Source: an uncultured Candidatus Saccharibacteria bacterium
GTDB lineage: Bacteria; Patescibacteriota; Minisyncoccia; UBA6257; Colwellbacteraceae
Direction: 5' to 3'
Assembly (NCBI GenBank): GCA_964565105.1
Contig: CAZMCG010000001.1
Coordinates: 1 to 57,892 of the forward strand
Length of the DNA stretch: 57,892 nt
How positions within the stretch are numbered: position 1 is the first letter of the stretch; each line of letters starts with the position of its first letter. Below, one piece after another: positions 4,392 to 38,644 of the stretch. The notes under the pieces were generated by a model, which was not told the DNA's origin, did no database searches, and saw nothing but the letters and a program-made list of their open reading frames with translations. The position numbers and the translations under genes are program-made.

Positions 4392-5141
4392 CTATCTTAA
4401 CGCCCCTGGGCGCTTGGAGCTCCAATCAAAAAGCGTTACGGCGAGCGACGCCGCTACATTTAACGATTCAAGTTGTGAGTGCGTTGGTATTGCAAGCAAC
4501 TCATCACAAAGCTCTCTGGTTTTTTGTCGAATCCCCTTGGCCTCGTTTCCTATTATAAAAACCGACGGTTCATCATACGATTCCTCATTGATTGTTTTCA
4601 CTGCTTCTCCGTCCAACCCATAAATGCGGAATCCTTTATCTTTTAAATCACGGATGGTCATGTTTACATTTGGTATTTCCACAATTGGCACACGAAATGC
4701 CATCCCCGCAGAAACTTTCACAACAGCACCCGTAACGGGGGATTGGTTGTGCCTTGGCATCAATACTCCCGATGCGCCAAATCCTGCGGACGAACGGATT
4801 ATCGCGCCGACATTGTGCGGATCTTCTATCTCACCTAAAAGTACCAATGCGTTGTCGGGACCAATTTCTAACTTGCGGATAAAGTCATCATACTGCAGTA
4901 CTAATTTATCTAAAGAAATTCTTCCAATTACCCCCTGATGCACATCAGAATTTTTTACCCCCTGAGTGTTTTTACCGGAGCCAAGGGGGGACAAAGAAAC
5001 ATTTGCGTTATCAATTGCCTCACGCAAGTTTTTGTCTTTATTATTCTTGGCAAGAAAAACCTTATCTACAGCATACGGAGCGTTAAGAAGCGCTTCCATA
5101 AGTGCGTGCCTCCCATAAATAAATATCTTATTTTGTTTCAT
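4392..5141 (-). CDS. TrmH/SpoU-family RNA 2'-O-methyltransferase (RlmB-like)
   Basis: Contains IEDPHNVGAIIRSSAGFG, IIGNEAKGI and SLNVAASLAVTLF motifs. GGAGG lies 6 nt upstream of the ATG at 5141. Confidence 0.85.
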   Translation of the reverse strand: MKQNKIFIYGRHALMEALLNAPYAVDKVFLAKNNKDKNLREAIDNANVSLSPLGSGKNTQGVKNSDVHQGVIGRISLDKLVLQYDDFIRKLEIGPDNALVLLGEIEDPHNVGAIIRSSAGFGASGVLMPRHNQSPVTGAVVKVSAGMAFRVPIVEIPNVNMTIRDLKDKGFRIYGLDGEAVKTINEESYDEPSVFIIGNEAKGIRQKTRELCDELLAIPTHSQLESLNVAASLAVTLFDWSSKRPGALR

Positions 5142-5236
5142 AGCTTCACCTCCAAACATAACAAAAAACACCCCCCATCGTAAAGATAAGGTTGAAAAAG
5201 TCAGTGAATTGTTGCAGTTTAGATAATATACTTAAG

Positions 5237-5307
5237 TGCCGGATCATCTAATGGTAGGATGCGAGATTCTGGATCTCGTCGTCTAGGTTCGAATCCTAGT
5301 CCGGCAA
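5237..5307 (+). tRNA. tRNA-Gln (anticodon CUG)
   Basis: Hand-folded cloverleaf: acceptor tgccgga/tccggca, anticodon stem cgaga/tctcg with loop ttCTGga, T-arm ctagg-ttcgaat-cctag. CCA is not encoded. Confidence 0.9.
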
Positions 5308-5556
5308 CATTCATTCATACTTTCTTCCGAGAGACAGCTATTTCGATAGTAGGAGTTACTAGTCGTATTGTTATACGGAAAATATAAAACTCATTACATT
5401 CAAACACTTATATTTTCCTACAATACTCCTGCAACTCAGGATACTCTCTCCATAAGTCTCTCAAGAAGAAAATATTCATTCTTATTATTACTTAATGCTA
5501 CCTGCCATCTAAAAGATGGCGGGTTTCCAGGGTTTTTAGGGATTTGAACGGGAAGG
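5301..5556 (+). repeat. Direct repeat copy 1 (AT-rich module following tRNA-Gln)
   Basis: Aligns with 7739-8083 starting from the shared junction ccggcaac|attcattcatac. Identity is roughly 85-90% by eye. It ends in the hairpin ctgccatct-aaa-agatggcggg. Confidence 0.85.
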
Positions 5557-5726
5557 AAATCTTTCCTCTGCATGAAGCTGCGGGCGGGCAGGTGGGGAAA
5601 CGGCCCGCTCCGCCATAGCTTTAGCGAGGCGAGTAGTTTTCCATGGCGGAGTGCACGAACCGATGGGTTCGTGGGGGCAATCTACTGTATAACGGATTGC
5701 GACGTTCGATTACCTAGCCTGGTAAC
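5537..5726 (+). repeat. GC-rich structured element E1 (tRNA-Gln-end-bounded family)
   Basis: The 5' end tagggatttgaacg (5537-5550) is near-complementary (12 of 14) to the 3' end cgttcgattaccta (5703-5716). It contains the conserved core atggcggag-tg-cacgaacc-gatg-ggttcgtg (5643-5673) and ends in cctagcctggtaac, which resembles a tRNA-Gln 3' end. Confidence 0.6.
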
Positions 5727-6079
5727 ACAAGTGAAGCGAGTATTGATGACTTGTGCCTTTCAGTAGTCTCCTGACCCCCCGAAGCCCTTGGCGAAGGGCG
5801 TAAGTTATTGGCCTGTGGTTTTCACGGATAAATGTACATTTATATATTAGGTAGTAGATAGGAGAATGCATTGGTGGGGGAATTTTCCTTGGCTCCCGTA
5901 ATAGCTATTATTTTTACTATCATTGGATACGATGGATATATATTTTACTGCAACACCGCGCTTTCGCTGATAGGGTAAGAAAATATTTTTGATACCCTCT
6001 CTTTTTTCCGAGGATGGCAAGGTTGGAGTCGGTGCCGATGATATGATAAAATGATAAAGATGAACCCAAAAATATTTCG

Positions 6080-6427
6080 ATGAGAAGTCTACGCACGAAA
6101 GAAACACAAAAAAAATATGACGATTACAAAAAATCTGGGGGAATTAGCGGTGAATGCAACTTATGCAAATCAGAACCAATAAAATCGTTCGGGCGCTGGA
6201 GAATCATAGATAACGATTTCCCGTACGACAGAATCGCAGACACTCATCACATGATTATCCCAAATCGCCACATTACTGAAGACGATATTACAGATGAAGA
6301 ATGGGAGGAATTTAAGAAGATGAAAAAGGGCTATATAAACGACAACTATAATTTCATTTTCGAGAACACAATAAAAACAAAAACAATCCCAAAACATTTC
6401 CATATTCAATTAATGGTAGTTAAATAA
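6080..6427 (+). CDS. HIT-superfamily protein (HxHxQ branch)
   Basis: 115-aa ORF with an N-terminal CNLC, FPYD...HHMIIPNRH and a C-terminal HFHIQLMV triad-like motif. Confidence 0.7.
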   Translation: MRSLRTKETQKKYDDYKKSGGISGECNLCKSEPIKSFGRWRIIDNDFPYDRIADTHHMIIPNRHITEDDITDEEWEEFKKMKKGYINDNYNFIFENTIKTKTIPKHFHIQLMVVK

Positions 6428-6790
6428 TAAATATTATGACACTCCGAAAAATCGGACATAGCTCTTTCTTTTTGTTTTTAACGAGCTATTTTATTGAACA
6501 AAAAACCCCGACTTTCGTTTAGCCGAGACTTTTCTAATACCTAAAGAGTGTTTGCTTACATTAGAAAGTTAAAATTGCCACGACTAAACAAAGGGTTATC
6601 GTTCGCACCTCGCGAAATGATAAAGCCAATCGACCCTAGCTTTATCCAGTTGTAGCTGTCTCCGAGGAGAAATCAAACAACAATGCAGTATAATTATAAA
6701 TACATAGGCGCTATTCGCATAAAACAAGGGTTGAGATATAAAAATGTTTAGAGCCCGCAAACGAAACGGGCTCTGTGGTTGGGGGAGGTA

Positions 6791-6973
6791 CTACGCGTTA
6801 CGCGTACGGCGCCCAATGGGTTTTCCCTCACCGGGGATGAGCCTAATGGCTTCATCTAGGTATCTCAAGATCCAGTCCGGCGTTAGGGTGGTGTTGCTGA
6901 GCAGGTAGCGGAGTTCGAGGAGGTTGTCCCGCGCCTCCTGAAGATCTCCTTGTGTTATCTGTGTTGTAGTCAT
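6791..6973 (-). CDS. Hypothetical small protein (GC-rich orphan)
   Basis: 60-aa ORF immediately downstream of 7016-7291 on the same strand. GC is visibly higher than in neighbouring genes. The hairpin agagcccg/cgggctct follows it. Confidence 0.5.
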   Translation of the reverse strand: MTTTQITQGDLQEARDNLLELRYLLSNTTLTPDWILRYLDEAIRLIPGEGKPIGRRTRNA

Positions 6974-7015
6974 TTGTCATTCCTTTTCTCGGTGGACTCT
7001 GGGTCAGTGGAACGC

Positions 7016-7291
7016 TTACACTGTAGTTATGGCCCTGATTTCTTCCAGTTCTTTGCGTCCCTCATTGGTGACAAAAAGCTTTAGGGTTACAGGCGCCACC
7101 TTGATGGCGTTGTTATTTATACGGGAGAGTTCAAGTTTAAGAGCGCGCTCACTAAACCACCAGCCATAACTAGAGTTCGCGATGGCCGTATAGAGTTCAC
7201 TTGCTGTGTACTTACCATAGCCAACATGCTCTAGGAGCACTCTGCGAATTTCGCGACGGACACTGTCTGGGGGATAAATTCCAGGGGGCAT
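7016..7291 (-). CDS. Hypothetical small protein (GC-rich orphan)
   Basis: A strong SD (AAGGAGG) lies 5 nt upstream of the ATG at 7291, which starts MPPGIYPPDSVRR. This start is preferred over the longer TTG start at 7339. Confidence 0.6.
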   Translation of the reverse strand: MPPGIYPPDSVRREIRRVLLEHVGYGKYTASELYTAIANSSYGWWFSERALKLELSRINNNAIKVAPVTLKLFVTNEGRKELEEIRAITTV

Positions 7292-7496
7292 ACCTACCTC
7301 CTTGGGGTAATTGTTAGGGTGCGTACGCTTCTTTACCAAAACATACCAGACTTTATGCTAGAGTGGAAGGTAGGGTTGATGAGAAACTCCCCGAATGTAT
7401 ATAATATAAGTTAGTGTTGGGTGGCGCTTTGTTTGCCCGGCTATTATTCGGAGGAAATGCTTATATTCTATTGCGCAATCATTTCATTCCTCATTC

Positions 7497-7567
7497 TGCC
7501 GGGTGGTGTAACGGTAGCACGCTAGGTTTTGATCCTAGAAATCGGGGTTCGATTCCCTGCCCGGCAA
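7497..7567 (+). tRNA. tRNA-Gln (anticodon UUG)
   Basis: Acceptor tgccggg/cccggca, anticodon stem ctagg/cctag with loop ttTTGat, T-arm cgggg-ttcgatt-ccctg. Confidence 0.9.
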
Positions 7568-7576
7568 CAAAAATGG

Positions 7577-7609
7577 AGTAGTCGTTTTTCTGACGGCTAC
7601 TTTGTTTTT
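7577..7609 (+). terminator. Intrinsic terminator of tRNA-Gln(UUG)
   Basis: Stem agtagtcg (7577-7584) / cggctact (7594-7601) followed by ttgttttt. Confidence 0.7.
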
Positions 7610-7610
7610 G

Positions 7611-7746
7611 TGGCAGGGAATCGAACGCGAAAGGGGTCGGGAAAACAGCTGTTTTCCTGTGGCGGAGCGCACGAACCGAGGGGTTCGTGAAAGTCCCGAA
7701 CTAGTTGAGGGACGAGTGAGATAGCGAAGCGTCCCTGCCCGGCAAC
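7611..7746 (+). repeat. GC-rich structured element E2
   Basis: Starts with ggcagggaatcgaac (7612-7626), the exact reverse complement of the tRNA T-arm/acceptor at 7547-7561. Contains hairpins ggaaaacagctgttttcc and cacgaacc-gagg-ggttcgtg (7670-7689). Ends in tccctgcccggcaac (7732-7746), identical to the tRNA 3' end at 7554-7568. Confidence 0.65.
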
Positions 7747-8083
7747 ATTCATTCATACTTTCTTTCGAGAAACGACTATTTCTATAGTAAAAGCTACTAG
7801 TCGTATTGCTATACGGAAAATATAAAACTCATTACATTCAAACACTTATATTCTCCTACATCAACGAGTGAGAAAAAATGAAGATATAAATATCTTCATT
7901 TTATCCGAACGAGGAAGATGCAAGAAATTGTTTTACAATTTTGCCACAATACTCCTGTACCTTTATTATACTATCTCCATAAGTCTCTCGATAAGAAAAT
8001 ATTCACTCATATTATTACTAAGTGTTACCCGCCATCTAAAAGATGGCGGGTTCCCGGGATTTGTAGGGAATCGAACGGGAAGG
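7739..8083 (+). repeat. Direct repeat copy 2 (AT-rich module)
   Basis: Aligns with 5301-5556 and carries an extra 87-nt insertion at 7861-7947. Confidence 0.85.
7872..7903. terminator. Bidirectional terminator-like hairpin inside the copy-2-specific insertion
   Basis: aaaaa-atgaagata-taaa-tatcttcat-tttt: a perfect 9-bp stem flanked by an A-run and a T-run. Confidence 0.5.
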
Positions 8084-8246
8084 GGTTCCTCCAGAGGCGG
8101 ACAGGCAGGGAAACGGTAGTTTCCCGTGGCGGAGCTCACGAACCGAGGGGTTCGTGAGAGTCCCAAATTAGTTGAGGGACGAGTGAGATAGCTTGTCCTG
8201 TTTATCTCGAGCTACGTCGAGGGACGAAGCGCCCCCGCAGGGCAAC
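8063..8246 (+). repeat. GC-rich structured element E3
   Basis: The 5' part gtagggaatcgaacgggaagg includes a 12-nt complement of the tRNA-Gln(UUG) T-arm. Contains gggaaac-ggta-gtttccc, the core gtggcggag-ct-cacgaacc-gagg-ggttcgtg (8127-8156), an extended gagata...tatctc hairpin, and a degenerate 3' end cgcagggcaac. Confidence 0.6.
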
Positions 8247-8317
8247 AGCCAGTTGAGACCGACTGGAGAGGTTGATTAGAACCTTTTGTTAATGGTTTAG
8301 TGTTATGCTTAGTGTAA

Positions 8318-9274
8318 ATGTTTATAGATGATGTAACAATTAGAGTATCCGCTGGTGATGGTGGTCGTGGAAAAGTAGCTTTTAACTCTAACGCCATGAG
8401 TCTTGGTCCAGCAGGTGGTAGTGGTGGCAATGGTGGGAGTGTCTATTTGGAGGGTGGTTCTAACTTAGATTTGTTAAACAATCTGCGCTTCAAAAAAGAG
8501 ATTAAAGCTATTAGTGGACAGGATGGCAAGCCACAATTCCGCGATGGCGCCGGTGCTAGAGATCTGATATTAAAAGTGCCAGTGGGGACTTTGGTTCATA
8601 ATCTTGATACCAACGAGGAGAAAGAGGTTCTAAAAATAGGACAAAAAAATCTCATTGCTAAAGGAGGTTCTGGCGGAAAAGGCAACTTTCTTTTTCGAAG
8701 TTCACGCAATACAAGTCCTCGTCAATTTCAAGAGGGGCTACCTGGAGAAAAATTTACATTTCGTTTCAAATTAAAACTTATTGCGGACGTTGGTTTCATT
8801 GGCTTACCGAATGTAGGAAAATCTAGTTTTCTAAATGAATTGACTAATGCCAAAAGTAGGGTTGCTAATTATCAATTCACTACGCTCGAGCCAAATTTGG
8901 GAGTTTATTACCACTTAATACTTGCTGATATTCCGGGGCTTATTGAGGGGGCGTCTTCGGGGAAAGGACTGGGTATTAAATTCCTTCAGCACATTGAACG
9001 CACTAAAGTCTTGTTTCATTTTGTCTCTGCTGAGTCAATTAACCTAATTAATGATTACAAGACTGTCCGAAGCGAACTTAAAAAATACAATGAAGAATTA
9101 CTCGATAAGCCAGAGTATCTTTTAATTAGTAAGAGTGACTTGGTTGACTCAGTAGATCTGGAGAAAAAACTTAAGTCTTTAAAAAAAGTAAGCAAAAATA
9201 TCTTAGCTATATCCATCTATGATATAGATAGCATTGAAGCTGTTAAGAAAATCCTTAATAGTTTAGAAAAATAG
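8318..9274 (+). CDS. obg: GTPase Obg
   Basis: N-terminal Obg fold MFIDDVTIRVSAGDGGRGKVAFN, G1 motif GLPNVGKSS and G3 motif DIPGLIEGAS. Confidence 0.95.
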   Translation: MFIDDVTIRVSAGDGGRGKVAFNSNAMSLGPAGGSGGNGGSVYLEGGSNLDLLNNLRFKKEIKAISGQDGKPQFRDGAGARDLILKVPVGTLVHNLDTNEEKEVLKIGQKNLIAKGGSGGKGNFLFRSSRNTSPRQFQEGLPGEKFTFRFKLKLIADVGFIGLPNVGKSSFLNELTNAKSRVANYQFTTLEPNLGVYYHLILADIPGLIEGASSGKGLGIKFLQHIERTKVLFHFVSAESINLINDYKTVRSELKKYNEELLDKPEYLLISKSDLVDSVDLEKKLKSLKKVSKNILAISIYDIDSIEAVKKILNSLEK

Positions 9275-9353
9275 GGGGTACTGGATATTAACGGCCAGCC
9301 GTTTAGAGCTAACTTAAAAATTACCGAATAGACTAAGTAATTGCAGAAATAAA

Positions 9354-9394
9354 GTAAATAAACTATCGTATTGCGGTAACGATAGTTTATTTAC
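9354..9394 (+). other. Perfect 16-bp inverted repeat between obg and the ABC-F gene
   Basis: gtaaataaactatcgt (9354-9369) / acgatagtttatttac (9379-9394). There is no clear U-run. It could be a terminator or a leader attenuator. Confidence 0.4.
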
Positions 9395-9412
9395 ATCGTT
9401 CTTATAAAGACC

Positions 9413-10888
9413 ATGACACAAAAAGGACAAGTAATAATGAGGTTTCAAAATGTTTCATTTGAATACAATGTTAATAAGCCCATTTTGAAAGAAGTAAGTT
9501 TTACCACGCGTTTGGGTTCTAAGATAACGCTTATGGGGCAAAATGGTGCCGGGAAAAGCACTATGTTTCAGCTCATTACAGGTGAGCAAAGTCCTATTGA
9601 GGGGAATATTCATTTAGAAAAAAATCTTTCTATCGCAATTGCCCGTCAAGTTATTCAACGTGATGAACTTGAATTAACTGTACGGGAATTCTTTCAAAAA
9701 GCTTTTAAAGAGAAGGTTTATAACATTGATCCACGAATAGATAAAATTTTAAAGGTGGTAAACCTTCATGCATCTAAAGAAAGAGAGATTAAGGACTTTT
9801 CAGGAGGACAGCAAGCTCGTCTATTATTAGCATTTGCTCTTATTCAAGATCCTGATCTTCTTCTACTTGATGAACCAACAAATAACTTAGACAAAGACGG
9901 CATTGCTCACTTAACTCAATTCCTAATTAATTATGAAAAAACTATTATCGTCATCTCGCACGATGCAGAGTTCTTAAATGCTTTTACGGAAGGAGTTCTA
10001 TATCTAGACATTTTTACTCAAAAAATAGAACGGTATGCCGGTGACTATGAAGATGTTGTTAAAGAAATTGCTGCACGCGTAGAAAAGGAACGCAGAAAAA
10101 ATGCTGCACTTGTAAGACTTATTCAAGAGAAAAAAGATAAAGCTAACTTCTTCGCCAACAAGGGAGGGCGTATGAGGATTTTAGCAAAACGCATGAGAGA
10201 AAGTGCTGCTGAAGCAGAAGAGTCTAAAGTTGATGTATGGCGTGAAGATAAAGCTATTAGAGATTTTGTAATCGAAGTTGATCAACACCATGTGGGGGAG
10301 ATATTGAATATTAAATCTTTAACCATAATGAGAGACCATAAATTAGTTAAATGTGAAGCTAATATATCTTTGAAAAAGAATAGACACTTACTTCTAACTG
10401 GGCCAAATGGGATAGGAAAGACAACTTTGCTTGAGCATTTAGCAAACGGTACTGAGAAAGGAGCACAAATCTCACCAGGGGTAAAAGTAGGATATTATCG
10501 ACAAGATTTCTCTGTACTTGATTTCAATGAAACTGTACATCAGGCATTAAGCTCAGCAGCAACGGGTATATTAGACGAACAAAGACTACGCAGTATTGCC
10601 GCGGGGTTCCTTATTAGTGATAAATTGATGCGCACAAAGGTAGGAGATCTATCTGAAGGAGAAAAAGGTCTTGTCGCATTTGCTCGACTTGTATTGTCTA
10701 AGCCAAACTTATTAATACTAGATGAACCGACAAATCACATAAACTTCCGTCACTTGCCTGTTATTGCAAAAGCTATTGATCAATATAAGGGAGTACTACT
10801 TCTTGTATCCCACGCACCGGAGTTTGTTGATCAAATTCGTATTGATGAAATTTTAGATCTTGAGAAATTAAAACAAATTAAGAATTGA
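9413..10888 (+). CDS. ABC-F family ATPase (two tandem ABC domains, no transmembrane domain)
   Basis: Walker A GQNGAGKST and GPNGIGKTT, signatures FSGGQQ and LSEGEKG, Walker B LLLLDEPTNNLD and LLILDEPTNHIN, plus a charged linker. Confidence 0.9.
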   Translation: MTQKGQVIMRFQNVSFEYNVNKPILKEVSFTTRLGSKITLMGQNGAGKSTMFQLITGEQSPIEGNIHLEKNLSIAIARQVIQRDELELTVREFFQKAFKEKVYNIDPRIDKILKVVNLHASKEREIKDFSGGQQARLLLAFALIQDPDLLLLDEPTNNLDKDGIAHLTQFLINYEKTIIVISHDAEFLNAFTEGVLYLDIFTQKIERYAGDYEDVVKEIAARVEKERRKNAALVRLIQEKKDKANFFANKGGRMRILAKRMRESAAEAEESKVDVWREDKAIRDFVIEVDQHHVGEILNIKSLTIMRDHKLVKCEANISLKKNRHLLLTGPNGIGKTTLLEHLANGTEKGAQISPGVKVGYYRQDFSVLDFNETVHQALSSAATGILDEQRLRSIAAGFLISDKLMRTKVGDLSEGEKGLVAFARLVLSKPNLLILDEPTNHINFRHLPVIAKAIDQYKGVLLLVSHAPEFVDQIRIDEILDLEKLKQIKN

Positions 10889-11052
10889 TGATCACCTTGC
10901 ATTGACAATTCTCCCAAGTCTGTCACAATACACTCATAACTTAATATCTCATTGTTTTTGTTTTGCTTTAACCTTAAACCCTCGAGATGAGGGTCTTTTA
11001 ATACTTATATAGACTCAAAGTTATAAGAGTATTCAAACTCTATAGACAAAAA

Positions 11053-12249
11053 ATGAATAGACAAAACAATCATCGCCGTACTGGTGGGGCTTCTTCTTTT
11101 AGGAAACGACCCCAATCATCTCGAAAATATTCTCACAAAAGGATAGATATTTCGAGATATATTAATACAAATACTCAACCTATTGAGGCTATTAAATATA
11201 CTCATAGGCATAATTTTAAAGACTTCCCTATAGGAGAAAGCCTCAAAGTTAATATTGCATCTAAAGGATATACCACTCCAACTCCTATCCAAGATCAAAT
11301 AATCCCTGAGATTCTAAAGGGATTGGATGTTGTCGGTGTTGCAAATACTGGCACTGGTAAAACAGCAGCATTCCTTATTCCATTGATTCATAAAGCTCAA
11401 GTTAGAAATAAGGAACAAATTTTAATTGTAGTTCCAACTAGAGAATTGGCTCTTCAAATTAATGAAGAATTAAAATCATTTATTAGAAAAACGGGTATGC
11501 GCTCTACATGCACAGTAGGAGGTTCACCAATTGGTCGTCAGATTTCAGACCTTAGGCGCTTTAATAACTTTGTTATCGGGACCCCTGGACGAATTAAAGA
11601 TCTAATTGAGAGAAAAGTATTAAATCTTTCAAAGTTCAACACAGTAGTCTTAGACGAAGCGGATAGAATGCTTGACATGGGATTTATTAACGATATGCGT
11701 TTCATGATGTCTAAAATGCCACACGTTAGGCACACACTTTTCTTTTCAGCCACCGTTTCAGTAGAGATTGAAAAATTAATTAAGGAATTTCTTAAAGATC
11801 CTGTCCGTGTATCAGTGAAGACGGGGGAGACAGCAAAGAATATTCATCAAGATATCGTTAGGATTAAAAAAACTTCTAACAAGATGGATACACTTCATGA
11901 TCTATTAAAGAATAAAGAATTCGATAAGGTTCTTGTTTTTGGCAAAACAAAACACGGTGTCCAAAGGATATCTAACGCCCTTCTTAAAAGAGGACTTTCT
12001 TCAACAGCAATTCATGGAAACAAAAGTCAGCCTCAAAGACAAAGAGCTTTAAGTGATTTTAAAACTAATAGAACTCGCATTTTAGTAGCCACAGATGTAG
12101 CCGCTAGGGGATTAGATATTCCTGATGTAAGTCACGTTATTAATTTTGATATACCAGCTACATACGAAGACTACGTTCACCGTATTGGTCGCACTGGCCG
12201 AATTAATAAGAAAGGTAAAGCACTTACGTTTATTGAACACTCTGTGTAG
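11053..12249 (+). CDS. DEAD-box ATP-dependent RNA helicase
   Basis: Q-motif region TPTPIQ, then ANTGTGKTAAF, PTRELA, DEAD, SAT and HRIGRTGR. Confidence 0.9.
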   Translation: MNRQNNHRRTGGASSFRKRPQSSRKYSHKRIDISRYINTNTQPIEAIKYTHRHNFKDFPIGESLKVNIASKGYTTPTPIQDQIIPEILKGLDVVGVANTGTGKTAAFLIPLIHKAQVRNKEQILIVVPTRELALQINEELKSFIRKTGMRSTCTVGGSPIGRQISDLRRFNNFVIGTPGRIKDLIERKVLNLSKFNTVVLDEADRMLDMGFINDMRFMMSKMPHVRHTLFFSATVSVEIEKLIKEFLKDPVRVSVKTGETAKNIHQDIVRIKKTSNKMDTLHDLLKNKEFDKVLVFGKTKHGVQRISNALLKRGLSSTAIHGNKSQPQRQRALSDFKTNRTRILVATDVAARGLDIPDVSHVINFDIPATYEDYVHRIGRTGRINKKGKALTFIEHSV

Positions 12250-12324
12250 GGGGTTGAGCACGAGTCGTTGATGGGTAGTCAAATCGTACTAGTACGAGGA
12301 GTGTATGGGTATCGTACGCTTGAG

Positions 12325-12349
12325 GTGGGTTCGATTCCCACTATCTCCA
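12325..12349 (+). ncRNA. Orphan tRNA/tmRNA-like T-arm plus 3' acceptor strand (no cognate 5' half found)
   Basis: gtggg-ttcgatt-cccac followed by tatctcc-a. This closely resembles a tmRNA/tRNA 3' end, but no GGAGAUA/GGGGAUA partner lies within tRNA distance upstream. Confidence 0.4.
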
Positions 12350-12482
12350 GGAACTTGCAATCTAGTCAAGGATTCAGTGATTTTTTGATACTGTTCTTTT
12401 GAATAATCTATGCTCTTGAAGGGAGCTTGTTGTGCCGAAAGTATACTTAATACGAACTAGCCTTGAATTGATAGCGTGGATT

Positions 12483-12555
12483 GAGGAAATTGAAGGCGAC
12501 TTCGAATAACTTGATGGAGGACGAGTGAGATAGCGAAGCGTCCCTGCCCGGCAAC
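12483..12555 (+). repeat. GC-rich element E4 (short form)
   Basis: gaggaaattgaaggcgac resembles the E 5' arm. The block 12519-12555 is identical over 37 nt to 7710-7746 and ends in the tRNA-Gln 3'-end 15-mer. Confidence 0.6.
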
Positions 12556-12905
12556 CACGTAAAATAACAAACCCGCCCTCAAAGGTGAGTTTGTTATCAC
12601 GTGGCGCGGCCACGAAAAGTGATTGGTTCACCTCGTGGCGCGGCTGCGGGGACTGGGATTTTTACTCCATGATAAGCCACGGGATAATTTTACGTGGGTC
12701 GGGTGATGAATTGCACAGCAATTCATTTTACGCGACACTTACAATATGTATTATGTCTCGCCCTTCGTTTCTCTCGGGGCTTGCCAAGTGCAAGTACATT
12801 CGACCAGGCTTTCTTCGACTTGGTTTGATGCTACTCACCACAAGTCGCTCAGGATAAACAGTGCAAGCGCTTTGATTAGCTCATAAAATTTAATATGATT
12901 AGTTT

Positions 12906-13154
12906 ATGTATTTTGTTTATATCATCAGGTGTGAAGATAGCAGTCTTTACACTGGATCAAGCCCCAACCCAAAAGAGAGGTTTAAGAAGCATAAAGCTGG
13001 GACTGGCGGCAAGTACACAAGATCTCATAGACCTGTAAACCTTGTTTATATCGAAAAGCTTAATACTAAAAGCGATGCAATCAAAAGAGAGATGCAAATC
13101 AAGAGATGGCGAAAAGACAAAAAAGAAAGACTTGTAAAGGGAGCAAAGCTGTAG
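12906..13154 (+). CDS. GIY-YIG nuclease-domain protein (stand-alone, UPF0213/YhbQ-like)
   Basis: 82-aa ORF with YFVYIIRC..SLYTGSS, the KERFKKHK..G..KYTR region and a YIEKL...A.KRE..IKRW tail. Confidence 0.85.
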   Translation: MYFVYIIRCEDSSLYTGSSPNPKERFKKHKAGTGGKYTRSHRPVNLVYIEKLNTKSDAIKREMQIKRWRKDKKERLVKGAKL

Positions 13155-30328: not shown

Positions 30329-31288
30329 ATGGAGAAAAACCAACGACCACTCCCCCTTCATATTCCGGATTATTTAGACTGGCTTGATGTAGAAAGGGGT
30401 CTTTCTACAAAAACTCAAGAAAACTATGCTCGTTTTTTAGGAAGATTTTTAGAATGGCTTGAAAAAAACAAATTATCCAACCTAAAACCCCACGAAGTCT
30501 CCCCCGACCACATTTGGAAATATAAAATTTATCTAGCACGACAAACACGCTCAAAGCGCTCCTCTCAGGCACTAAAAAAGACTACCCAAAACCATTATCT
30601 TATTGTATTACGCTCTCTTTTTGGATATTTTGCGGACAGAGATATATTAGCTCTTCCACCTGAAAAAATTAAATTACCTAGAGATAGGAGTGATAGAGAG
30701 GTTCGTTTTCTTTCTTTAGAGCAATTAGAGCGATTATTTTGTGCCCCCAATACATCTTTGCCCGGGGGGTTGAGGGACAGGGCAATACTAGAAACTTTTT
30801 TCTCTACAGGCATGCGCATATCAGAGCTTGTAGGACTTAATCGAGAGCAGATAGAGCGATTTCTTAATTCAGAAGACTTAGAATTGGGCATTGTTGGTAA
30901 AGGGGGTAAGGCTCGCACGGTTTATTTTTCACCCAGATCTCTTTTGTGGATTAAAAAATATCTCAAAACACGCAAAGATAATGATAAGGCCCTATTTGTA
31001 AACTACAGAAGACGGAAAGATGCACCCTATAGACTCACTCCTCGGTCAATAGAAAAAGCTATTAAAAAATATGCCTCAATCGCCGGGCTACCCCCTAACA
31101 CAACCCCCCATGTTCTCAGACACTCATTTGCTACAGACCTTTTAAGTCAAGGTGTGGATATAAGAGTTTTACAAGAATTCCTTGGACACAAAAGCATCAC
31201 TGCTACTCAAATCTATGCCCATGTTACTAGTAAAAAATTACGAGAGGTACACCGCAAGTATCATGGTGGCCATAGGTTATCAAAATAA
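30329..31288 (+). CDS. Tyrosine site-specific recombinase (XerC/XerD-like)
   Basis: N-terminal SAM-like domain, then RDRAILE..TGMRISEL, HVLRHSFATDLL and LGHKSITATQIYAHV. Confidence 0.9.
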   Translation: MEKNQRPLPLHIPDYLDWLDVERGLSTKTQENYARFLGRFLEWLEKNKLSNLKPHEVSPDHIWKYKIYLARQTRSKRSSQALKKTTQNHYLIVLRSLFGYFADRDILALPPEKIKLPRDRSDREVRFLSLEQLERLFCAPNTSLPGGLRDRAILETFFSTGMRISELVGLNREQIERFLNSEDLELGIVGKGGKARTVYFSPRSLLWIKKYLKTRKDNDKALFVNYRRRKDAPYRLTPRSIEKAIKKYASIAGLPPNTTPHVLRHSFATDLLSQGVDIRVLQEFLGHKSITATQIYAHVTSKKLREVHRKYHGGHRLSK

Positions 31289-37631: not shown

Positions 37632-38644
37632 GGCCTGTTTTAGGCACACACATTTGGCGGGTTTGTTAATTTGTAATCGGCAAGGAATTCATTCGGTGTC
37701 TTGCCACCCAACCCGCAGTGCTCAAGGTTGTTGTACTTAGTATTCCATACCCTCATCTCTTTGCGCAACTGACCCACACTTTTAAACCTGCGATTTAAGA
37801 GTCTTCTGTTGTCTTCCCTGTGACTTCTCTCCACCGTGCCGTTTTGTGATGGCTTTCCAGGATCAATGAGGTAGTGAGTGATATTGTGTTGTGCGCAGAA
37901 CTTGTCCAGTGCGTGTATCTCTTTGACCGTCATATCACTCCTTTTGTTTGTGCCTGTATAGTAGTTGGTGAATGTGGAGTGATTGTCTGTTTTGATGGCG
38001 ACAATTGTATGGGGGAATCTCCTCATCACAATCTTGAGAAACTCAATGGAGTGATATGTGCACTCTTCGTCAAACACCTCTAAGTGACGCCATCTGCTTG
38101 CAGTATCAATAGCGGTGTATTGGTAGTATTTCCTGCCCTGTATGGCTCCGGGAACGTGTTTAACGTCAATTTCAATAAGTTCACCGAGTTTTCTTTCCGC
38201 GCGAAGATATTTGTATTTCACTCTCTTCACTCTGTATTTGCGAACCAACCTCTCTTTTTTGAGTATCTTGCCGACAGTACGCTCATGGATACGAATACCT
38301 TCCTTTTCGAGCCTCCAGTGTATCTTTTTGGCGCATATATCCTCTTTTCCGCGCAAGGCGATAATCTTCTCCTTGATCGCAATTGGCGTCTCAATACGAT
38401 ATCTCTTCGGTTCCGTTGACCTTGGCTCAAGGTTCTTTTCTCCACCTTTCTTGTATGTTGCCACCCAGCGTTCAAGCGTCCTCTTGCCGTACGGACATAC
38501 TTTAGCCGCATCGACTAGCTTTATCTCCTTTTTAACTATGGGGAGTACCCATCTTAGCCTCTCTTCTTTAATTGTTTGTGCCATATATATTGCCATTCTC
38601 CCATTCTAGGGAAAACCGCCATATGTGTGTGCACATTACCGGCC
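37632..38644 (-). mobile_element. IS481-family insertion sequence (about 1.0 kb)
   Basis: Imperfect terminal inverted repeats ggcacacacatttggcgg (37643-37660) and ccgccatatgtgtgtgc (38616-38632), possibly extending to about 28 nt. A single DDE transposase ORF ends inside the left IR. Confidence 0.7.
37640..38596 (-). CDS. IS481-family DDE transposase (HTH + rve integrase core)
   Basis: N-terminal HTH with CPYGKRTLERWV. Catalytic region IEIDVKHV...YQYTAIDTASRW...IKTDNHSTF...PSQNGTVERSH. Confidence 0.9.
   Translation of the reverse strand: MAIYMAQTIKEERLRWVLPIVKKEIKLVDAAKVCPYGKRTLERWVATYKKGGEKNLEPRSTEPKRYRIETPIAIKEKIIALRGKEDICAKKIHWRLEKEGIRIHERTVGKILKKERLVRKYRVKRVKYKYLRAERKLGELIEIDVKHVPGAIQGRKYYQYTAIDTASRWRHLEVFDEECTYHSIEFLKIVMRRFPHTIVAIKTDNHSTFTNYYTGTNKRSDMTVKEIHALDKFCAQHNITHYLIDPGKPSQNGTVERSHREDNRRLLNRRFKSVGQLRKEMRVWNTKYNNLEHCGLGGKTPNEFLADYKLTNPPNVCA

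Follow-up and report, generated by a model that had tools for sequence, protein, structure and literature searches.

The window analyzed here is the whole 57,892-nucleotide (nt) stretch of contig CAZMCG010000001.1 (assembly GCA_964565105.1) from an uncultured Candidatus Saccharibacteria bacterium placed by GTDB in the Colwellbacteraceae; its Obg protein has its best named relatives in Yanofsky- and Colwellbacteria (Paceibacterota), and the closest matches are 74-81% identical. It carries two tRNA-Gln genes and, on the same strand, four GC-rich segments, E1 to E4, of a small structured element that is the subject of this work. The element has four helices (P1-P4) connected by joining strands (J) and is bracketed by two arms related to the 3' end of the neighboring gene, a sense copy (S) and an antisense copy (S'); a spacer (x) separates it from that gene. 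The features are as follows, with D numbers denoting direct-repeat families.

5237..5308, + strand: tRNA-Gln(CTG) (ARAGORN; Rfam tRNA, 59 bits), whose 3' end (S) is the model for the E1 arms.
5309..5526, + strand: spacer x of E1 (direct repeats D2, D3, D9), homologous to 7748-8063 and ending, by its sequence, in the hairpin CCTGCCATC-TAAAA-GATGGCGGG.
5527..5727, + strand: E1, an old copy (cmsearch, 48.9 bits), with S' arm 5527-5550, P2 interrupted by a 70-nt insert 5551-5644, GGCGGAG 5645-5651, P3 5654-5673, P4 5677-5700, GAC-G 5701-5704 and 3' arm S 5705-5727.
7497..7568, + strand: tRNA-Gln(TTG), intact (ARAGORN, Rfam, repeat D5); its final 16 nt, TCCCTGCCCGGCAACA at 7554-7569, are the left S copy for E2.
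7570..7611, + strand: spacer x/t of E2, a terminator-like hairpin GGAGTAGTCGT-TTTTCTG-ACGGCTACTTT and then a T-run (sequence, fold, paralog comparison).
7612..7747, + strand: E2, the youngest copy (cmsearch, 90.4 bits), with S' GGCAGGGAATCGAACG 7612-7627, J1/2 7628-7637, P2 7638-7659, J2/3 TGGCGGAGCG 7660-7669, P3 7670-7689, P4 GTCCC..GGGAC 7693-7713, GAGTGAGATAGCGAAGCG 7714-7731 and right S 7732-7747.
7748..8063, + strand: E2-E3 spacer, homologous to 5309-5526 behind tRNA-Gln(CTG) (D2, D3, D9), with one extra 80-nt insert.
7941-7969, within the E2-E3 spacer: promoter-like site.
8064..8247, + strand: E3 (cmsearch, 58.5 bits), 70 nt upstream of obg, with S' 8064-8077, J1/2 with an inserted hairpin, P2 8107-8127, GGCGGAG 8128-8134, P3 8137-8156, P4 8160-8180, GAGTGAGATAGC 8181-8192, inserted hairpins 8193-8231 and a decayed S CCCCCGCAGGGCAACA 8232-8247.
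12508..12556, + strand: E4, an isolated 3' remnant of a copy like E2, consisting of AACTTGATGGAGGACGAGTGAGATAGCGAAGCG and the tRNA-Gln(TTG) tail (repeat D4).

The sequence-only reading that preceded this work had described four loci sharing one element with a conserved core block. The block is present where it had been placed at three of them: the 29-nt core GGCGGAG-NN-CACGAACC-NNNN-GGTTCGTG occurs on the + strand at 5645-5673, 7661-7689 and 8128-8156, the 5' block AGGGAATCGAACGGGAAGG is found at the same three loci, and a covariance-model search of the 57.9-kb window returns exactly three copies, E1-E3. We consider the core observation confirmed because these three copies stand against no match in 100 window shuffles, with up to 3 mismatches tolerated. 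E4, which had been taken for a short form, is instead a remnant that shares with E2 only the last 48 nt (92% identity; D4); GGACGAGTGAGATAGC is common to E2, E3 and E4. This fragment lies 190 nt behind an unrelated tRNA-like sequence and still carries a tRNA-Gln tail, which reads GGCAA-CCA in E4, GGCAA-CAA at the tRNA gene and GGCAA-CAT at E2. The 8-bp stem reported as invariant is so inside the window, where P3 is a perfect palindrome, but across the family it covaries (CACAAACC/GGTTTGTG, CTAAAACC/GGTTTTAG, TTGGAAACC/GGTTTCCAA and others). The self-complementary inserts noted between the conserved blocks are genuine and correspond to helix P2 or to hairpins inserted into it. The limits originally drawn were too short, as each element starts with the reverse complement, and ends with a copy, of the tRNA-Gln 3' end.

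These arms are clearest in E2. TCCCTGCCCGGCAACA recurs exactly at its 3' end (7732-7747), with one change at the end of E4 and in decayed form in E1 and E3 (D5), and the E2 5' end, GGCAGGGAATCGAACG, is the reverse complement of tRNA positions 53-67, comprising the T-loop, the 3' strand of the T-stem and two acceptor bases. The ends of E2, E1 and E3 match the tail of the preceding tRNA, and an antisense S' and a sense S therefore bracket each element. The proposed link to tRNA-Gln thus stood and could be widened, with nearly all further copies found behind tRNA genes, but the antisense and sense copies of the neighbor's gene end had been missed. In E1, S' and the downstream S have changed jointly (CCAGG/CCTGG), away from the TCCGG of the tRNA. 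In E2, S' includes a T-loop complement that finds no partner in the element's own 3' arm, so that its template is the tRNA gene, read across the left boundary of the duplication.

The two tRNA-Gln genes also allow a comparison of paralogous arrangements. The sequence directly behind tRNA-Gln(CTG) (…GGCAACA|TTCATTCATACTTTC…) follows the right S of E2 at 7748, with homology over 129 nt at 90% identity that continues to E3 (D2, D3, D9). The arrangement tRNA-Gln(CTG)|TTCATTCATAC is therefore to be set against tRNA-Gln(TTG), 178 extra nt and TTCATTCATAC, the extra segment consisting of a terminator-like hairpin, S', the core and a second S, with a 16-nt duplication flanking it. Read in this way, E2 is a 178-nt insertion relative to the paralogous arrangement, and its spacer (7570..7611), which the paralogous locus lacks, therefore belongs to the insertion. 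E1 and E3 represent older copies of a unit made of a tRNA tail, a 230/310-nt spacer and an element.

To place these copies in a wider context, we scanned genomes (one per GTDB species) for the strict core and retrieved 57 core loci, all in Patescibacteria except one on a 1.7-kb contig labelled Syntrophaceae. The groups with a strict core are Jorgensen-, Colwell-, Lipton-, Wolfe- and Harrisonbacteria, other Paceibacterota, and Saccharibacteria, and a single Jorgensenbacteria bin holds the highest count, 11 copies. In metagenomes, a search with a J1/2-plus-P2 pattern yielded at least 120 loci, so that further copies are plentiful in genomes and metagenomes alike. Neither pattern has a match in IMG/VR, and the phage and plasmid collections contain no match to the element; we rejected a phage or plasmid origin on these grounds. 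The element family is restricted to the Candidate Phyla Radiation (CPR). In the following, L numbers denote individual loci.

The family shares a core of ≈85 nt within an overall length of 110-220 nt. From 5' to 3', the consensus consists of S'; GG-GAAAGGGGUC (J1/2); P2, with GGGRAAAC, a 4-nt loop and GUUUYCCC; GU-GNNGGAR (J2/3, sometimes with an inserted hairpin); P3, in which the outer 4-5 bp are free and the distal part reads AAACC-GNNG-GGUUU; RGA; P4, a hypervariable hairpin; GAC-G; and S. In a MAFFT alignment of 53 copies, 97.8% of the cells pair and double changes occur in 11 of the 17 pairs, a level reached in 0 of 500 shuffles. A second alignment of 110 metagenome copies among the matches listed, which unlike the first was fitted to the model (A5) and therefore leans towards the structure, has double changes in 16 of 17 pairs (240 cells; again 0 of 500 shuffles as high), with 98.4% of cells paired versus 30-73% for slid partners and at least four pair types in each of the four outer P3 pairs. 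Automatic finders for P1 and P4 also picked up spurious helices, and of their output only clear rows were used; P4 is represented by at least 14 unrelated self-complementary sequences of 5-10 bp, and copies of one genome have a common P4 type across different targets. J1/2, P2 and distal P3 are, in contrast to this hypervariable hairpin, nearly identical from Saccharibacteria to Parcubacteria. By the criterion of helices kept by compensatory changes beyond the controls, the element is a conserved structured RNA, which bears out the earlier view that it is structured and noncoding. G.U pairs outnumber A.C pairs by 20 to 7 on the tRNA-sense strand, and the folded strand is therefore the tRNA-sense strand, as RNA or as top-strand DNA. 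The purine strand GGGAAAG of J1/2 (e.g., window 7628-7659) resembles the 5' strand of P2, and both change together in the divergent L014, L039 and L017; this likeness suggests an alternative helix with GUUUCCC, or a triplex. A G-quadruplex in GGGAAAGGGGTCGGGGAAACGGG was rejected, as the fourth G-tract is not conserved.

Across the family the layout is that seen at E2: the end of the host gene (S) comes first and is followed by spacer x, which is usually a terminator hairpin, then by S', the core, a second S and native downstream DNA. S' is antisense to the first 8-16 nt of S, including the tRNA T-loop, and S' and S are able to pair as the closing helix P1. Among the genome loci, 48 of 100 tRNAs have a strict core ≤400 nt downstream, always on the same strand; for the 97 evaluable metagenome copies among the matches listed, a tRNA or transfer-messenger RNA (tmRNA) lies upstream in 58 and a repeat of ≥10 nt is present in 63. 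The targets include at least 15 tRNA specificities and one tmRNA, the preferred site being the 3' end of the gene from T-loop position 53/54, and the element lies 15-65 nt behind the tRNA on the tRNA strand, usually with a terminator between. The exact repeat S (13-23 nt) runs from the T-loop or the 3' strand of the T-stem to 2-10 nt beyond the discriminator, the antisense arm measures 7-16 nt, and the duplication varies from 9 to 60 nt across sites. T-loop variants specific to a given tRNA are copied into both arms (TCCGA in L055; TTCAA in L005, L026 and L032), and S' is therefore a true complement and not half of a T-arm; a minus-strand tRNA or T-arm 5' half was rejected, as non-palindromic T-loops (TTCAAAT) appear as their complement. 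S' covaries with the upstream S copy in L046 and L054. When folded, the stretch from the T-loop to S' forms one long interrupted hairpin, with the terminator at its tip and the distal acceptor strand in an internal loop.

CCA follows the discriminator in the right copy only at 7 sites versus in the gene only at 2, and is also found in E4; this is a weak hint of a matured RNA intermediate, and we set aside a CCA-tailed intermediate as too weak to claim. The base after the discriminator is C in 59 of 59 tRNA genes beside elements (L001-L183 plus the window), with the next two bases CA in 43/59, the next three CAA in 34/59, and full CCA in 8, so that these genes have a partial CCA-like trailer. 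At L031 (tRNA-Ser gct), L043 (tRNA-Arg tcg, tRNA-Pro cgg) and L033 (tRNA-Thr ggt), apparently unrelated cores, one of them tandemly repeated, lie between an antisense arm and a sense tail copy; the arm architecture may therefore be broader than the element family.

Targets other than tRNAs have arms built in the same way. L034 lies at the 3' end of ftsZ, where two coding copies of the peptide WDIPTFLRRKKK* differ by synonymous changes. L052, L105 and L119 lie within the 5' part of genes for translational GTPases, in the opposite orientation; the start codon and the first codons are present twice, and an AT-rich stretch takes the place of the terminator of tRNA sites. L020 (6364-6452) is at the 3' end of an open reading frame (ORF) and shows a repeat of 9 nt, a tight hairpin S-AAA-S' and a P1 of 17 bp containing several G.U pairs, and L007 and L009 sit on a terminator hairpin. 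The gene copy adjoining the gene body is intact in every case, the host gene being preserved because its end is duplicated.

Copies also differ in age and in form. In tandem units, the tRNA-distal unit is shortened or decayed (L032, L001). A subfamily of ≈215 nt with constant ends (L132 3753-3962 and 6355-6560; L151, L094, L143) is found at unrelated sites, 91-100% identical including the arms, with its own hairpin TCCCTGCC-TTCCTA-GGCAGGGA, sharp boundaries TTTAATGAC…GGAGTTTAC and no visible target duplication. Armless copies comprise an 85-nt core exactly between tRNA-Tyr and tRNA-Thr (L115), a core between tRNA-Ile and tRNA-Ala (L084), and cores behind a promoter-like site, TTGACG-16-TATGAT, that abut the first tRNA of an operon (L133, L171). 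Among relatives' loci fetched via Obg, four of five are without a copy (L059, L060, L062, L063) and one has a single copy (L061). The family thus combines a covarying structure with target-matched arms and a duplicated target end, and its members include tandem, decayed and relocated copies with no linked protein.

The search for such a protein covered the ORFs within ≈4 kb of 58 copies, which clustered into housekeeping families with no recurrent neighbor gene. The element contains no ORF, and no autonomous parent insertion sequence (IS) was found among the neighbors. The only recombination enzymes recognized in the window by a Pfam scan of candidate ORFs are an Xer-like tyrosine recombinase (30329-31288, + strand; 22 kb from the elements) and an rve/IS481-like transposase (37640-38596, - strand; far from the elements); the window ORFs include no Y1/HUH, IS110, TnpB or reverse transcriptase (no RT motif), and neither TnpA nor TnpB occurs among the element neighbors or window ORFs. 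We rejected an autonomous parent or partner protein linked to the element, given housekeeping neighbors only and recombination enzymes that lie far from the elements in the window.

Comparison with known RNAs was equally negative. With Rfam 15 (4227 models, including tRNA, tmRNA, group I/II introns, hepatitis delta virus (HDV)-like, hammerhead, twister, hatchet, HEARO, ROOL and GOLLD), only the two tRNAs reach the gathering threshold, and at E≤10 on positions 5000-13000 nothing overlaps E1-E4 except chance microRNA matches over the tRNA/E2 hairpin. The absence of a recognizable Rfam family, remarked on from the sequence, therefore holds even at this permissive cutoff. Full-text literature searches returned no description of such an element. 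Folds of the group I, HDV-like, hatchet and twister types were rejected for want of an Rfam match and because the strand order does not fit. A tmRNA or two-piece tmRNA was likewise discarded: the 5' block resembles GGAUUCGAC but is the antisense of a T-loop, and there is no tag, no T-arm and no ARAGORN or Rfam support.

We read E1-E4 as members of a CPR-wide family of small, non-autonomous, protein-less mobile structured RNA elements that home to tRNA 3' ends, and give this reading an even chance of being correct. The element would move through a single-stranded, most likely RNA, intermediate, and its functional form would be an RNA co-transcribed with tRNAs, in which P2, P3 and P4 are arranged around purine-rich joining strands on the tRNA-sense strand and closed by P1. 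S' may serve as a guide straddling the insertion point, with base pairs to the T-loop on the upstream side and to the T-stem on the downstream side; an intron's internal guide sequence (IGS) or exon-binding site (EBS) would be comparable, as would the folded att sites of CTXphi and of integron cassettes. The layout tRNA(S)-x-S'-core-S could arise if S-x-S'-core, in the form of a single-stranded circle or of a read-through copy, recombined within S, and a flanking tRNA or tRNA-like P1 would let tRNA-processing enzymes excise the RNA. Rewriting of S' at each target might involve quasi-palindrome correction, templated synthesis from the target or a step resembling spacer acquisition.

In a stronger form, which we advance tentatively and judge less probable than not, the element would represent a new, protein-less class of mobile RNA that carries its own guide and may be a ribozyme. 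Through 5'-arm pairing across the insertion point it would home to the T-loop region in tRNA and tmRNA genes, as well as to other conserved gene ends, rebuild the host gene end and rewrite its arms for each target. Among the closest parallels are guide-bearing mobile RNAs such as the IS110 bridge RNA (PMC11208160) and group I/II introns, with which the element shares an S' complementary to both sides of the insertion point (T-loop 53-60 and T-stem 61-67). It differs from both in having no Rfam intron core and no recombinase or reverse transcriptase gene, in duplicating rather than splitting the gene end and in carrying a guide that varies from copy to copy. More specifically, a bridge RNA is encoded beside a DEDD/Tnp recombinase gene, presents its target and donor guides in two internal loops and goes with a 2-nt core duplication, whereas here no ORF adjoins the element, the closing helix is what the guide-like segments form and the duplication is at least 9 nt; as for group I introns, defined by a P3-P9 catalytic core that has a G-binding site and by an internal guide for both exon ends, the guide-like logic of S' is present, but the core is only ≈85 nt, with no RF00028 match and no U.G at the would-be splice site. 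IS200/IS605 miniatures and the TnpB omega-RNA are likewise strand-specific structured noncoding units whose 3' end runs into the flank; in contrast to these, and to palindrome-associated transposable elements (PATE), the element studied here duplicates its target, carries an antisense arm and follows no fixed motif other than its preference for the T-loop.

Several observations weigh against the reading as mobile structured RNA elements. ORF clustering and window ORF scans revealed no linked transposase, integrase or reverse transcriptase, and no mechanism accounts for the rewriting of S' at each new target. No empty-site allele was recovered: the relatives found through Obg are not syntenic, exact look-ups of two flanking proteins gave nothing, and the predicted empty junction is absent from metagenomes. 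Mobility rests for this reason on one paralog comparison and on the architecture. The lean of the larger alignment towards the structure, mentioned above, belongs here as well. The duplication includes 2-10 nt of trailer, so that DNA recombination fits better than a matured RNA, and transcription of the element may be low because a terminator usually precedes it. Finally, an RNA gene useful to the host could account equally well for the extreme conservation of the core across phyla and for the armless copies driven by a promoter.

This last alternative is the most serious one, and we regard it as unlikely though with appreciable weight. It holds that the elements are a family of structured RNA genes in tRNA transcription units, with a functional core of ≈85 nt (binding a protein partner or a ligand, or acting as a ribozyme) that is freed by RNase P and RNase Z via the flanking tRNAs or the tRNA-like P1, and whose copies multiply with tRNA genes and are homogenized by gene conversion. 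Such an origin would agree with armless copies that abut tRNAs exactly (L115) or stand between a promoter-like site and a tRNA (L171, L133), with the near identity of J1/2, P2 and distal P3 from Saccharibacteria to Parcubacteria, with the joint change of S' and S in the old copy E1 and with the single P4 type within a genome. It accords less well with copies inside or at the ends of protein genes, some of them antisense, where gene ends are duplicated, with truncated and decayed copies, with the patchy distribution among the Obg-fetched loci, with the terminator that usually separates tRNA and element, or with at least 10 copies in genomes of ≈1 Mb. The two readings overlap and are not exclusive, because a domesticated mobile RNA would look alike. 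The element is also reminiscent of tRNA-like structures, RNase P minihelices and repeats of the short interspersed nuclear element (SINE) type, in that P1 consists of T-stem and inner acceptor sequence and the element ends in a tRNA tail, sometimes with CCA; here, however, the T-loop is paired, only 2-4 acceptor bp are formed and the tRNA-derived part is the arms rather than the body.

Less probable still, and in our view improbable, is a cis-acting element for processing or switching of the tRNA 3' trailer, in which S' would pair with the tRNA tail or with the second S in mutually exclusive helices. Cleavage of the precursor would be the work of the core itself, or of a nuclease that the core recruits to the internal loop holding the discriminator. 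Theta (HDV-like) ribozymes, which adjoin phage tRNAs, provide the precedent (PMC10879173), and both are small structured RNAs right behind tRNA genes on the same strand. The constant strand and 15-65-nt distance, the long S-x-S' hairpin with the distal acceptor strand and discriminator in an internal loop, and an S' that follows the upstream and not the downstream S copy in L046, L054 and E2 all point the same way. Against this, no self-cleaving ribozyme model, including those of the HDV family, matches the element; non-tRNA sites, antisense ones included, have equally well-matched arms; a terminator would halt most transcripts ahead of the element; and the armless copies have no pairing partner. 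Unlike theta ribozymes, which have a nested double-pseudoknot fold and a 5' end abutting the tRNA 3' end, the element has terminator spacing, target-matched arms and a chromosomal location in CPR genomes, is absent from viral collections, and abuts a tRNA directly only in L115.

We consider it quite improbable, more so than a trailer element, that the elements are DNA-level recombination sites or scars, that is, the att-proximal ends of tRNA-integrating islands or phages, or a protein-recognized palindrome, left behind after island loss in the manner of a cis-mobilizable element (CIME). As in integrase-mediated islands, insertion occurs in the 3' part of a tRNA or tmRNA gene from the T-loop, the left tRNA is intact, and the tail is repeated at the right (13-23 nt plus a few trailer bases), so that the tRNA 3' end is found at both junctions; the palindromic P3 of the window copies and the tyrosine recombinase in the window could be taken the same way. 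Yet the inserts keep to 110-220 nt and have a complete structure, unlike kilobase-sized islands or a random remnant, helix covariation includes G.U pairs on one strand, the target recurs in a further, antisense copy, one nearly identical core serves dozens of targets, no integrase is nearby, and the IMG/VR, phage and plasmid collections hold no match. The attP hairpin of CTXphi and integron attC sites offer another analogy, since there too inverted copies in one strand fold into a duplex that reproduces the target site; theirs is one fixed target (dif, attI) used by known recombinases (XerCD, IntI), whereas here the duplex differs from site to site. Repetitive extragenic palindromic (REP) sequences with their REP-associated tyrosine transposase (RAYT) and classical miniature inverted-repeat transposable elements (MITEs), moved by a Y1 or DDE transposase on fixed terminal repeats, are very improbable, for although the elements are multi-copy, small, GC-rich and ORF-free, one subfamily (L132-type) is interspersed with constant ends and an rve transposase lies in the window, the arms differ at every site and match the target, the duplication (9-60 nt) is variable rather than fixed in length, no parent IS is known among the neighbors, no Y1 or HUH gene is present in the window, and a four-helix unit of 110-220 nt with site-specific arms is far larger and more structured than the constant 20-40-nt palindromes of REP/RAYT (REPIN) systems. 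Of the hypotheses offered from the sequence, REP/RAYT is accordingly unsupported, also in view of the 110-200-nt size of the unit, and a MITE-like element or a new tRNA-linked noncoding RNA holds up, with insertion-like features and a tRNA position but without the hallmarks of a classical MITE.

Taken against these systems, the S-x-S'-core-S architecture joins an att-type duplication, known from tRNA-targeting islands, to an arm resembling the guides of introns or bridge RNAs (PMC11208160) and to a location behind tRNAs like that of theta ribozymes (PMC10879173). We rated it as falling outside the known kinds, since it departs from each of these in defining features, with the mechanism at the stage of a proposal.

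Other features near the elements deserve mention. The motif GAGATAGCGAAGCG (7714-7731 and 12523-12540) precedes the right S in one subtype and contains GCGAAGC, a very stable DNA mini-hairpin; in the L019 and L109 spacers it also forms the loop between tRNA tail and S'. At 12250-12348 (+ strand), right after the stop of a DEAD-box helicase ORF (11053-12249), lies a 99-nt tmRNA-like tRNA-like domain, GGGGTTG…GGTGGGTTCGATTCCCACTATCTCCA, with G3:U70 and A73; it gives a weak Rfam tmRNA match, is not called by ARAGORN and is too short for a tag. Beside E4, the GC-rich stretch 12556-12650 (+ strand) combines a long inverted repeat, CACGTAAAATAACAAAC…GTTTGTTATCACGTG, with a direct repeat of 30 nt (D8) that ends in CGTGGCGCGGC, and may be another small element. 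Between E1 and tRNA-Gln(TTG), a block at 6750-7340 (- strand) has a GC content of ≈50% versus ≈35% in its surroundings, two small ORFs (60 and 107 residues) with no Pfam family and a terminator-like hairpin at its end; it may be foreign DNA or a toxin-antitoxin-like pair. Finally, L058 (window 8086-12548), an independent Logan assembly of the same organism, has one end inside E3 and the other inside E4, and element copies therefore break short-read assemblies.

Beyond this effect on assemblies, the element creates tRNA-tail pseudo-copies able to confuse annotation and att-site prediction. If 5'-arm-guided homing is true, the element would amount to a natural, programmable system of insertion that relies solely on host enzymes or is self-catalyzed. 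If the element is mobile, it would represent a new way of inserting DNA harmlessly to the target, with the gene end duplicated and a terminator or promoter supplied, and with a target specificity written in its own arms; this would be relevant to how RNA-guided recombination arose and to tools for genome writing. Should the element instead be a host RNA, it would be among the most conserved orphan RNAs of the CPR, with a biogenesis tied to tRNA processing. The CPR/Patescibacteria account for a large part of bacterial diversity, and although their genomes are tiny, some carry at least 10 copies of the element.

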